From NCBI GenBank assembly GCA_964016885.1, contig OZ024740.1, positions 58,032,001 to 58,096,000 of the forward strand: a stretch of DNA of 64,000 nt, written 5' to 3'. The position numbers were made by a program, and so were the translations under genes. The DNA is from Eledone cirrhosa. Taxonomy: Eukaryota. Below, one piece after another: positions 9,905 to 16,506 of this stretch. Below the pieces are notes generated by a model. It was given only the letters and a program-made list of their open reading frames with translations, was not told where the DNA came from and made no database searches. Each line of letters begins with the position of its first letter. The stretch's first letter is position 1.

Positions 9905-10120
9905 AAGAGCAGTCAATTAACAGAATGGTTAGAGTATCAGACAAAATGCATTGCAGTCTTTATTCCGAATCTTTACTTTCTGAGTTGTAATCTATCTGAG
10001 GTCAATGTTGCTTTTCATCCTTCCAAAGTCGATTAAATAAAGTACCCATCAAGTATTGAAGTTATAACCAACTTCCCTTCCCCTCCAATTTGCTTGCCTT
10101 TTACTTAAATTATAAAACTA
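9905..10120 (+). mobile_element. diverged family-1 SINE whose tail is split by the Helitron
   Basis: Core gcttttcatccttccaaagtcgattaaataaagtacc. The tail ...tataaaacta continues as ttat at 14100. Confidence 0.65.
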
Positions 10121-10235
10121 CTAGCAGAATGGCCCGGCGTTGCTCGGGATTTGCTATAGGGTTCTTATATATTTGATATATATTTATCCTTATCGAACCT
10201 CGTGAAATAAATACGTTTGTTTATATTTTGTTATT

Positions 10236-10807
10236 CATCATCATCATCGTTTAACGTCCGTGTTCCACGCTTGCATGGGTTTGGACGGGAGTTTTCCCAC
10301 TTGAGGCAAGAGTGATTGTCTTGCTCGCATAGGACTGTCTGGCGGGTTTTCTACAGCTGGATGCTCTTCCCAACACCAACCACATTTACAGTGTGGGGCT
10401 GGGAGGTTTTTACCGTGTTGCCTACACGGCCACATTACAGCGTGGACTGTGTGTTTTTTTGTCATGACAGCTACACGATCTCCTTTGTTTCGGCCTGGAT
10501 GTTGTGGCACCAACATAACTTTACATTGAAAGGGGCGGTGTGGATGGGGTGGGGGTGGTGGGACGGGGGTGTATTTTGTTAGGGATGCCTACTGACTGTA
10601 GTAGGTTTTACTTTGTATTTAGGTAAGGCGGGTCTTCTCTATTACTGAGTACCGCCAAAGGTCTCGGTCCAGTGACATTGTCTTGGAGAGGTGTAAGTGT
10701 GTGAGGTCGGAATTTATCAGCTCGTCCCAGGTTTTTCTGGGTCTGCCTACTCCGTAGCTACCGTCTATCTTTATTGCCCTGCACTTTGTTATACAGCTGT
10801 CGTCTTG
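10236..10807 (-). mobile_element. 5'-truncated RTE subfamily A copy inserted in the Helitron
   Basis: ORF end IKIDGSYGVGRPRKTWDELINSDL, 3' UTR and (GAT)n tail. Confidence 0.9.
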
Positions 10808-11672
10808 CAAAAATATCTGTCCATAAATATATAATTATATATATATATATATATTAAAATAACAGACTAAAGTTTAAGCAAAGAATCACTGCTTTCACCC
10901 TTAACGGGATATTCTACCTAAAAGCAGTATGAAGTACATACACTAAGACTAATTGATGTAATCTTTGGCCTTGTTTGTTTATATTTTGTTTTTGTGTATG
11001 CAAAAATATCTGTACACGAATATCTATATTAAAATAACATATTAATGTTTAATCAAAGAATCGCTGCTTTCAACCTTAACGGGATCTTCTTAAACTAAAA
11101 AAATCAATCTGGAAAACAGGAAGATGATACTTTGGTTCGTGAAGACGTTCCCTGACATAAGAATATATATACACACACACACTGATCGCATCATAATGAC
11201 GTAATGCAGACAGTCAGGCATACAGACAGATATTATGAAGGCACGACGTCATATCTATGTATCTATCTAAAAAGAGAAAGACTAAGAGAAAGAGATCGCT
11301 AAATCGCCTAATGCGGTCCCTAGAGCATTGAAAATTTGAAATTTTTTTTGCTCAAAACACTTCCGGGGTCATACGAGTTACATGTATAAAGTTTGAAAAA
11401 AACCGGTTGGGTACTTCTCGAGTTTTAGGGAAACAGACACACAGACATCCTCTGTTTTATATATATAGACTAGCAGAAAACCACCCGGTGGGCGGTTTTC
11501 TGCTAGCAAATCTAGTGTATATACTGATATTGTTGAGATTTGGATGGGAAATGTTTTCGGCACCACATGTTCACCGTCTCTCGGTGTGTCTTTTATGCAT
11601 ATATAAATATATATGTTATCTATACGGTGAAATCTTTGAAATAAATATATGTTAAAACGAAAAAGGAGAAAA

Positions 11673-13788
11673 TAAATAACTGGCGGTTAGAAAAAAATAT
11701 TCCTATGAAATTTTAATCATACCATTAGGTGTGAATAAGGAAATATTTTTTTATTGTCAAAACAAATGTTCAAAAGTTAAACTTCAATTTTTTGAATTAT
11801 TTCCAATTTTTTCATGAAATTGAACACTGGACATTGGCTGCTGGAAATGGAAATTAAATCGTATTTAATTGTATTTAAATTTCTAACCTTCTTTTATTAT
11901 TTATATTTTTCAATAAGAAATAAAAAAAAACAACAAAAAAAATTGAGGAAAAAAATTGAACAAATCAAACGTAGGTTATGGAACTGCGCAATCTGATTAA
12001 TAAATTACCTCATCAGCAGCAACCTTCTTCAAATGGTCCTTATTATCAGCAGCAACAACCACAAATTCAATGGCAACCTTCTTCGCATGGAGTCAAGTCA
12101 GAACCGCCTTGAACTGGTTACTTCTGGCTTGTGCAAGGTGTCTCTATAGCAACCAGCGATTCCCTCGGCCTCAGTGACCAAAGTCAGTGGAGATGGGAAG
12201 GTAATGTTTCTGTAGCACGTGTTTTAGCGTCTATTCACTCTCTCTCCCTCCCTCTCTCCCTGCCGCTATCCCCCTCTCGTAGTCTGTCTATTTCTTTCAC
12301 TCGCACTCTCTCTCTACGCATGTGTTTCCACTGTCAGACAGACAGAGAAATTGCTGGTTATATATATAAGTAGACTAGCAGAAAACCACCCACCGGGTGG
12401 TTTTCTGCTAGTATATATATATATTACACACACAGAAATGTATATATATTTCTGTGTGTATATATATATATATTACACACACAGAAATGTATATATATTT
12501 CTGTGTGTATATATATATATTTCTGTGTGTATATATATATATATATTACACACACACAGAAATGTATATATGTTTCTGAAGCACTCCTCAATTCCCCCTC
12601 TCTCCCTCCCGCTATCCACCTCTTGTAGTCTCTCTCTTTCTTTCACTCTCTCTCTACGCGTGCGCAAAATCATTCGCATGTGCGCACATGTTTCCACTGT
12701 CGGACAGACAGACAGAGAAATTGCTGGTTATATATTATAAGGAAATTACATATACATATGTAACTATGTATATCATCATCATCATCCCCATTATATATAT
12801 ATATAATATGGGCCGAAGCCGAAAAAAATTTTGTTTAGCAGCTTTAATTGCGCCTTAATTTTATTCAAAAAATTGTATACTAACATATTCGAATACCAGG
12901 CACTATTGGAATCAACAATAGCAGCGTCCTGAGGGTCATTACAAAACACAAATTCACGAGAACTAGTGTTTAAGGCTTGGAAGGTGGTAAAAAAATCCAC
13001 AAAATCTTCCATTCTTTTAAAAAAAAAATTTATTTTTAATAATATTTAAATAACTGGCAGTTAGAAAAAAATATTCCTATGAAATTTTAATCATACCATT
13101 AGGTGTGAATAAGGAAATATTTTTTTATTGTCAAAACAAATGTTCAAAAGTTAAACTTCAATTTTTTGAATTATTTCCAATTTTTTCATGAAATTGAACA
13201 CTGGACATTGGCTGCTGGAAATGGAAATTAAATCGTATTTAATTGTATTTAAATTTCTAACCTTATTTTATTATTTATATTTTTCAATAAGAAATTTAAA
13301 AAAACAACAAAAAAAATTGAAAAAAAAAATTGAACAAATCAAACGTAGGTTATGGAACTGCGCAATCTGATTAATAAATTACCTCATCAGCAGCAACCTT
13401 CTTCAAATGGTCCTTATTATCAGCAGCAACAACCACAAATTCAATGGTAACCTTCTTCGCATGGAGTCAAGTCAGAACCGCCTCGAACTGGTTACTTCTG
13501 GCTTGTGCAAGGTGTCTCTATAGCAACCAGCGAATCCCTCGGCCTCAGTGACCAAAGTCAGTGGAGAGGGGAAGGTAATGTTTCTGTAGCACGTGTTTTA
13601 GCGTCTATTCACTCTCTCTCTCTCCCTCTTTCCCTCCCGCTATCCCCCTCTCGTAGTCTGTCTCTTTCTTTCACTCGCACTCTCTCTCTACGCATGTGTT
13701 TCCACTGTCAGACAGACAGAGAAATTGCTGGTTATATATATAAGTAGACTAACAGAAAACCACCGGGGGGGGGGGGGGGTTCTGCTAG
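11673..13788. repeat. about 740-bp direct duplication (11673-12411 and 13047-13788, offset 1374)
   Basis: Near-identical blocks, reflected in the duplicated ORFs 11814/13188 and 12131/13505. Confidence 0.95.
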
Positions 13789-15385
13789 TCTATATATCTA
13801 AAACAGAGAATGTCTGTCTGTCTGTCTGTCTGTCAGCTCACTAAAACTTGAGAACCATTCAACCGATTGTTTTCAAACTTTAGACATGTAATACTTATGG
13901 TCCTGTGAGTGTTTTGAGCAAAAATTATTTTAAATTTTCAATGCCCTAGGGACCGCATTAGGCGATTTAGCGTTCTCTCTATATAATTCTTAGTCTTTCT
14001 TTTTAGATAGATACATAGATATAACATTGCGCCCTTATAATATCTGTCTGTATGTCTGGTAGACAGACAGAGAAATTGCTGGTTATAGATATAAGTAGAT
14101 TATATGCACACGCATGTATATATTTGAAGTAGGGATTTTGCTCTATCGTTATTCCAATTTTCCCATTAATATAGCATTCTTCAGTGTTACTCTCCGCCCC
14201 ACACACACACATATATATAGAATAATGTGTTTCTACAAATGAACAAAATATTTCTAAATTCTATTTTTAAATAGTCTATTTATTTGCGATTACTCATCAT
14301 AGAGACGAATTAGGTTTTCCAATTCATAGAAAAGTGGTCGTTTATTTATTAGATAAATACTTTATAAAATGGGGTAATATTTTTATTTGTATAAAAATAT
14401 AAATAAAATTATGAAACATTTGTAAACAGATCCCATCTTTTTCAGATAAGTGAACTTTAAATATTATAATTTTAGGCATAACTGAAGTCTATAAAATTGT
14501 TTGTCTTTAATTTTCAGAAACCTTTGAGGAATATATTAATTGCAATCAATTCCATATATCTTTAGATTGCAATAAATAAATAAATGAATGATTGAGCCAA
14601 AGGATATATTTTATCATTATCATTGCATAATAGGGATGATCAGTTATATTTGAATAAATTAATTTTGTTCTATATGTTAATTTGCAATCTTTTTGTTAGC
14701 CATTGAGTAAATATGAAGAAAATAATACCTTTTATGTGAAATAAGATGAATTGTCTGTTTTATCATAGTTATACAGATAGATTTGTATTATGTACAAAGA
14801 TGATTAAGAATAAAAGTGGTCTTTTGAAATGCATATTTGGCAGAAATTTTCTGCATAATATCACATCAACAAAAGGCTTAAATTCTCAGTTTGTCAAGAT
14901 TTGGTATTATGCTACACTTAGAAAACTTGATAAAATTCAGAAAATATGCAAATATTTTTTATGTTTACTGGAAATGCAGCTAGTTATATCTGACAAATTG
15001 TTTTCAATGAAAATGAAATAATTGATTATGAAAATAACAGTTTATTTATTGTTGTGCAGATAAAAATCATTATGAGCATAAGTTTATTTTAGAAATAAAA
15101 TTAAAAAATTATTTTTCTTTTGTATCAATTTTGCTATTAATTTATTTCTTTAATATAGATATGATTTAAAAAAAATTATAGTATTAAAATCTAAATTGTT
15201 ATTATATTTGAATATACAGAAGGAATTACATGCACAAAGGGATACAATGTGTGCTTGTAATCCAGAAAATACTTTTACTTTAAATACTTCAACATTTTAA
15301 AAATCTTTAAACTTTTCCAGAATTCTTATTAAAATGTTGAATGATTTTTTTAAAGCCTGATGATTTCTATTTGCTGTTAAGTTAA

Positions 15386-15637
15386 CCCTTTCCTAACCAT
15401 ATTTCTTATGAAAGACATGGTATGTGATTTTCAAATTATTTTGAAAACAATTAGGGATTTAGAGAGATTTAGTAATATAACCAATTTTCTTATTATGAAG
15501 CTAATGTTTAGAACATAAGTTAACAAAGGTTCTTACATAAAATTATGATGGAAAGTAGTTTTTGGTTAAATATACACACTTTAAAACAAACATTTTGTAT
15601 CACAGAACCAAGACCAATTTCAGATTGTTTAGAAAAG
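15386..15637. mobile_element. TTAA-flanked MITE (piggyBac-like), family 2
   Basis: TTAA|CCCTTT start and AAAAG|TTAA end; internal similarity to 56448-56698. Confidence 0.6.
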
Positions 15638-16506
15638 TTAAACGCAACTACCAACTGGTAACTATACAGTTGAAATAGCTACCAAACTGTTCCAAGTTAC
15701 TCTAAGGCATCATCATCATTGTTTAACATCTATCTTCCACGCTAGCATGGGTTAGACGGGAGTTGTCCCAATTTGAGGCAAGATTGGTCGGGTGACGGTG
15801 TCTCACTCGTATAGGACTATCTGGCAGTTTTCTACGGCTGGATGACCTTCCTAACACCAACCACATTTATAGTGTGGACTGGGAACTTTTTACCATTACC
15901 TACACGGCCACATTACAGTTGGACTGTGTATTTTTTGTTGTGACACCTACACGATCTCGATCTCATTATCTCATTAATTTGGACTGGATGTTGTGGTACC
16001 AACTTTACAGAGAAAGGGTGATGTTGGTGAGAGTGGGGGTAGTGGGTTGGGGTGTATATTTGGTTAAGAGGTGCCTACTGACTGTAGGTTTGTACATAGG
16101 CAAGGTGGGTCTTCTGTATTACTGCGTGGCGCCAAAGATTTCGGTCCAGTTACATTGTCTTAGAGAGGTGCAAGTGTGTAAGGTCAGAATTTATCAAATC
16201 GTCCCAGGTTTTTCTGGGTCTACCTACTCCGTAACTTCCATCAATTTTGATCGCCCTGCACTTTTTTATACAGCTGTCATCTTTTATACGCATCACATGA
16301 CCATACCAACGTAGTCTTCTCTCAAGTAAACAGTATCTGATACCTCTTATTCCTAATTTCTCACTTAGTTCATTTATGTTTTGCCGTTCGCGTATATTAT
16401 TATTACACATCCAACGGAGCATGCATTCTTCGTTCCTTTCCAGTCTGCGCAGGTCCTCTGCACACAATGCCCATGTCTCACTGCCATGTAACATTGCTGT
16501 TCGTAT

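Follow-up and report, generated by a model that had tools for sequence, protein, structure and literature searches.

A young Helitron family with a palindromic 3' end sits in front of other Helitrons in the genome of Eledone cirrhosa

The palindromes found in a 64,000-nucleotide stretch of the Eledone cirrhosa genome (contig OZ024740.1; hereafter, the window) are the 3' ends of a young non-autonomous Helitron family with four body types. All 70 exact copies of the palindrome, or hub, whose flanks we examined lie directly on another Helitron's 5' end, and 68 of these 5' ends start with TC. A preliminary description of the window had read the hubs as parts of a fold-back or rolling-hairpin system and overlooked this near-obligate placement at the 5' ends of other Helitrons, which is their main feature. 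We call the family B and its body types F1 to F4; these names, together with A1 to A8 and F0, are labels coined in this analysis. B belongs to the Helitron1 (HLE1) group, and the way it targets is new, as observed in a single genome.

The three hubs are present where they were first placed, at 11470-11506, 12375-12411, and 13749-13788. Hub 2 is indeed a perfect 17-bp stem with a 3-nt loop and folds with a z of -11.3, while hubs 1 and 3 have folding z values of -5.9 and -5.0. A half-site search returned six matches in the window, with 0.16 expected by chance, and none of 100 shuffles reached six. It was also borne out that two kinds of arm, A and B, adjoin the hubs with zero gap, that these are Helitron-type ends, and that the outer 3' end at 10121 has nine letters in common with the hub arm. 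The genome search for the 37-mer that the preliminary description had proposed gave 782 matches at no more than one mismatch in the 3.0-Gb genome, with non-random flanks, compared to 0 matches for a reversed control. The hub is therefore not a one-off or local accident, and the same 782 copies reject an assembly artefact for the family, a rejection that does not extend to the G run of hub 3. A TIR element or MITE was rejected because the two ends are unrelated and there is no target duplication. Helentrons (HLE2) are reported to use a T|T target and to have short terminal inverted repeats (PMC11417382); this assignment was rejected given the A|T target and the TC and CTAG ends seen here. What had been missed is that, across from these arms, hubs 1 and 2 adjoin the body of an element, and that this body is conserved.

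On the minus strand of the window, three B elements and then an ordinary Helitron form a head-to-tail chain:

10121 to 11469, minus strand: ordinary non-autonomous Helitron of type A3, 1349 bp, the resident "host" that ends the chain
11470 to 12374, minus strand: B element with body F3, 905 bp, with its B 5' end at 12374 and a hub as its 3' end
11470 to 11506, minus strand: hub 1, the palindromic 3' end of F3, directly on the host's 5' TC
12375 to 13748, minus strand: B element with body F2, 1374 bp, in which another B 5' end lies internally near 12745
12375 to 12411, minus strand: hub 2, the perfect 17-bp palindromic 3' end of F2, on the 5' TC of F3
13749 to 14099, minus strand: B element with body F4, 351 bp, with its B 5' end at 14099 and an inverted A2 fragment as its body
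13749 to 13788, minus strand: hub 3, the degenerate 3' end of F4, containing a C/G run
13789 to 14058, plus strand: 5' piece from an A2 Helitron, captured in inverted orientation (the outward arm A of the preliminary description)
14100, minus strand: the A of the A|T target, flanking the chain at its 5' end; the matching T lies at 10120 and a target duplication is absent

As read from the flanks, with A at 14100 and T at 10120, the insertion was A|T without duplication. The A3-type host has its 5' TC at 11469, a short hairpin, and a CTAG ending at 10121, and its 3' end has 1871 exact copies in the genome. A dispersed repeat is nested in it at ~10236-10806 and occurs again at 15708-16283; the two copies have a CAT run at their start and are 77-86% alike. 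Another high-copy repeat at 15380-15600 shows a very deep pile-up in all four sequencing runs compared. Hub 1 is the form that ends F3, with 480 exact copies genome-wide. The F2 body has a TA/CA minisatellite ahead of its hub, and short forms beginning at its internal 5' end were found alone (L023, L046, L049). F4 hubs typically contain variable C runs, and F4 was seen at further loci (L043, L048, L065, L251, and more). Chains elsewhere in the genome have other element orders.

To define the family, we took the first 70 exact matches by position among the 782 hubs, all from one genome; two of these, L031 and L032, represent one duplicated locus. These two (G000:C2 101.34 Mb) lie 12 kb apart with identical structure and flanks, a local duplication. 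By hand count, a conserved body was present on one side of all 70 hubs (F1 in 28, F2 in 32, F3 in 9, and F4 in 1), conserved up to the CTAG of the hub, with the downstream side variable. Where visible, the bodies trace back to a common 5' end, the arm B noted earlier, which has 1572 exact copies in the genome; the F3 subterminal motif has 1060. The B 5' end, the conserved body, and the hub therefore make up one non-autonomous Helitron. Its 5' end begins with TC, its CTAG fits the CTRR of Helitron 3' ends, and an A precedes 19 of 21 chain-leading B 5' ends. The inner, G+C-rich stem of the hub ends 11 nt before the last base, and the outer stem is an addition. F3 has an extra CTAG; that it serves the opposite strand as a canonical 3' end was considered and rejected, as by eye this CTAG matches F0 subterminal sequence instead.

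The position of B was followed beyond the 70 loci. For F3 ends chosen without requiring a hub, and sampled like the other loci in order of position, 30 of 30 ended in a hub and then the 5' end of a Helitron. Across the genome, TCT came next at 450 of the 480 exact F3 ends. The ends of F0, an older relative that has another 5' end and almost the same palindrome, were followed by TCT in only 27 of 703 cases; true Helitron starts were found at 2 of 20 such TCT-followed ends examined, and none of 30 examined F0 copies adjoined a Helitron 5' end. Ordinary A ends were followed by a 5'-end motif, which is stricter than TCT, in 63 of 1871 cases (~3%). Hub ends with TG or TT directly after them numbered 49, mostly F0, and the six loci examined of the eight listed with the young loop were all mutated yet host-linked. 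Pattern counts, here and below, are exact-match lower bounds.

F0 (L101-L160) is itself a free-inserting family, with its own 5' end, a palindrome running from CTAG to CTAG, and a GAA loop; its 3' ends number at least 1669 and its 5' ends at least 2327. Nine F0 3' ends lie on one strand ~50-60 kb apart at G000:C1 143.3-143.8 Mb, likely a tandem segmental duplication. The palindrome alone was rejected as the cause of targeting because F0, with nearly the same palindrome, inserts freely.

The target choice of B is selective among Helitron 5' ends. The hosts, typed by eye and counted by hand, comprise at least a dozen 5'-end types, including B itself, several A subfamilies, and unrelated families; one host (L251) is a RepHel-coding element with F4 in front. 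A hub was carried by 456 of 1852 A1 5' ends. At F0 5' ends, hub junctions numbered at most 12 for 2327, and 9 of the 10 examined were F0-F0 tandems. Plain TA runs served as targets for 8 of 56 A ends and for 0 of 25 F3 ends.

Nearest-neighbour divergence without CpG was 0.7-1.1% for B bodies and 4.3% for A1, hub-linked and free copies alike. The host was older than B in 26 of 28 pairs (p ~1e-5), a comparison covering the A1 hosts with a readable core, with L032 dropped as a duplicate and four rows of the pair table re-oriented or relabelled by hand. In a same-sequence control, the F4 body showed 1.4% divergence and its A2 hosts 3.2%, while at L251 the gap was small (96% vs 94%). The hosts thus show roughly threefold the divergence of B, and these sequence comparisons make it likely that B inserts directly before Helitron copies that were already resident. 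No empty site, where a host lacking B would lie at the same flank, was seen in the sequencing runs; in a relative, X1, a contig ~95% identical stops near the hub-host junction. The summed contig depth of the bin with the B 5' end, which is not a copy number, was 30790 in X18, 9 in X1, 0 in X15, and 36 in X9, a difference between runs that hints at a lineage-specific burst of B.

We propose that B sits before the 5' TC of other Helitrons by integrating at that cut site in residents, which we regard as probable. A RepHel transposase acting in trans would peel B from its own 5' TC to the CTAG of the hub. Integration would be a strand exchange, a step to which we give somewhat better than even weight, at a resident 5' end recognised and nicked by the same transposase, with the 3' end of B joining the resident's T and the flank's A joining the T of B. 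Chains would grow through repeated use of B 5' ends as targets, since B 5' ends themselves serve as such. Loop flips, arm corrections, and inverted captures like F4 would be occasional template switches at the hairpin rather than a way of replicating. Ordinary families have ~3% such junctions, so B would have turned a side reaction into the rule. More broadly, we lean slightly towards viewing B as an origin-targeting parasite of Helitrons, one that would use near-exclusive strand exchange at 5' ends, have taken up roughly one in four host starts, and form new subfamilies via palindrome fold-back.

Candidates for the enzyme are abundant, with 3704 RepHel candidates in the genome; among 20 loci examined of 150 listed, none was a RepHel-coding element with its own B ends. 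One locus (L252, 1146-6300) has an unbroken frame of 1718 codons with a Helitron domain and is a candidate intact transposase. Near-identical RepHel-domain hits were observed in G000 at C20 3.5-5.2 Mb, C27 13.0-15.5 Mb, C19 35-40 Mb, and on C16. Many of them share an open frame of 362 aa, and those on C20 are spaced ~100-170 kb apart in one orientation; these are probably large segmental repeats in tandem, each with a Helitron inside.

The junctions could also arise by hitch-hiking, in which a leaky hub terminator or an extrachromosomal joint of B and host would let the two co-integrate at ordinary AT sites. Helraiser is reported to read through weak 3' ends (PMC4778049), every chain ends in another element's 5' end, and many chains reach an ordinary 3' end. 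Hub-headed elements were also somewhat enriched among the A elements that abut a 5' end (11 of 25 vs 8 of 37 others, p 0.09), in a table from which 40 of 102 rows were left out as tandems or for want of a readable 5' end. The same comparison served to ask whether the B 5' end carries the targeting trait, with this p of 0.09, and no determinant of targeting was found. We nevertheless consider hitch-hiking unlikely: the hosts are of a dozen or more unrelated types, about three times more diverged than B, and of the same age as free copies. This age gap only weakens the explanation, because an old donor copy could be peeled late. The distances of B and its host were uncorrelated in 9 F2 and 13 F3 pairs, which also speaks against it, though weakly, the test having little power.

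Less likely still is a strict target-sequence preference that matches A-type and B-type 5' ends, with the resident not nicked as an origin. Ordinary flanks consist of a T and AT-alternating letters, loosely resembling a 5' end, and B avoids the 5' ends of F0, whose sequence is different, both as this reading would have it. Against it, the TA runs that took 8 of 56 A ends took none of the 25 F3 ends, no hub was found before a look-alike motif outside Helitrons among the loci examined, and several hosts are alike in little beyond their first letters.

In parvovirus rolling-hairpin replication, flip and flop forms occur in similar numbers, the whole hairpin is inverted, hairpins are present at both ends, and inverted concatemers are formed. 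The terminal palindrome of B likewise occurs in two loop orientations, as the preliminary description had noted, with the flips a minority of 5 in 69 exact copies by hand count (F1 1 of 28, F2 4 of 32, F3 0 of 9) and of 5 in 57 for F1 in a genome-wide search. In F0, 36 loops were flipped and 1669 matched the left arm. The left-right asymmetry of the stem was kept in 24 of 30 flipped F0 loops, so only the centre turned in these, and whole-hairpin flips in F0 numbered just 5 to 8. A coupling of flips to stem perfection was predicted and ruled out (24 of 30 not). Template switching is reported to invert loops and correct arms at hairpins generally (PMC8794818), and the flip pattern fits this rather than a hairpin transfer in each round. 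At five loci (L018, L065, L016, L049, L295), the letters just outside the hub had been altered into a mirror image of those across it (TC into TA, or TA into TC), in some cases together with a flipped loop and in others not.

Hairpin-centred fold-back, raised in the preliminary description, was found as one private case. At L278 (~1270-1730), the first 193 bp of the host are duplicated in inverted orientation, centred on the hub. The inverted copy shares 99.5% identity with the host at its own locus, whereas no other host exceeds 94%, and because of this near match we conclude that fold-back happens in place. The arm A that points outward from hub 3 on the plus strand is present as described; it is not a separate element, being the body of the recurring F4 element. 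Among A2 sequences, the 17 F4 bodies group into a single clade (support 99/94, with the bootstrap not settled), so the arm is an inherited capture that was acquired once. The F4 pieces are ~1.4% apart, compared to 3-6% for A2 copies. An origin of F4 by fold-back, as seen at L278, is simpler than use of the hub on the opposite strand. At L355, two A-type Helitrons in a long inverted arrangement flank a short remnant that includes part of a B 5' end, possibly another fold-back product.

The rolling-hairpin model, with the hub as a self-primed bidirectional nick and termination site that yields inverted concatemers, has a perfect palindrome with CTAG at both ends, both loop orientations, the fresh hub-centred inverted duplication at L278, and the inverted F4 body in its favour, yet it is largely refuted by flip ratios far from one half, and we consider it highly improbable, with whole-hairpin flips rare, F4 arisen once, loops inverted at hairpins by template switching, chains running head-to-tail (all four elements of the window lie on one strand), and Helraiser reported to cut only the plus-strand junction, exactly where the ends meet (PMC5876387). 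B also differs from parvovirus termini in that its flips are mostly loop-only and its hairpin is at the 3' end only, with no inverted concatemers.

B integrating at resident 5' ends was compared with known systems. It is like the canonical HLE1 elements Helraiser/Helibat1 and wheat Xuan in its 5' TC, 3' CTAG, stem, A|T target without duplication, and variable captured bodies (PMC4778049, PMC13286980, PMC11417382), and its stem spacing, 11 nt before the last base, equals that reported for Helraiser (PMC4778049). It differs from them in that its stem also pairs the terminal CTAG and that another Helitron nearly always supplies the target T as its first base. Published cases include Helitrons in tandem arrays or as isolated self-insertions (PMC5148889, PMC5876387, PMC12001565) and composite Helitron elements (PMC4224331). 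The arrays and self-insertions in plants, bats, Fusarium (FoHeli4), and Metarhizium have 3'-to-5'-end junctions like those of B; one FoHeli4 was inserted 2 bp before the 5' end of another, and one triple tandem was described (PMC5148889). Known arrays are, however, rare or made of the same element, whereas the placement of B holds for ~94-100% of the family, across host families, and is selective. We found no family targeting the 5' ends of other Helitrons in the literature, supplements and subscription papers aside, nor in the available portions of PMC6544945, PMC13286980, and PMC11417382; the family may be catalogued in Repbase or Dfam without this trait noted.

Outside Helitrons, the HUH relaxase TrwC is reported to integrate transferred DNA into a resident oriT, its own nick site (PMC3264647). 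TrwC thus uses an HUH nick site as an integration target, as proposed for B; the TrwC reaction belongs to bacterial conjugation and is experimentally shown, while B is a eukaryotic non-coding element with an inferred step and a candidate RepHel enzyme. Tx1-type retroelements target other transposons. They resemble B in using mobile elements as landing sites and differ in their chemistry, and B hits the exact start and leaves its host intact.

Target choice and cutting by Helitrons are poorly resolved, and insertion is described as occurring at generic AT sites. A family with a cognate 5' end as its target in nearly every case suggests that origin nicking and target nicking can be the same reaction, and integration of B at such cut sites would make Helitron target choice directly testable. 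The targeted B and the free F0, with nearly the same 3' ends and different 5' ends, could be compared experimentally as a matched pair. In B, a transposon acts on a large scale as a parasite of its own class (456 of 1852 A1 starts), which is a route to chimeric Helitrons, and B may be a lead toward site-specific integration. If the proposed integration is true, B would be a eukaryotic counterpart of relaxase integration into oriT.
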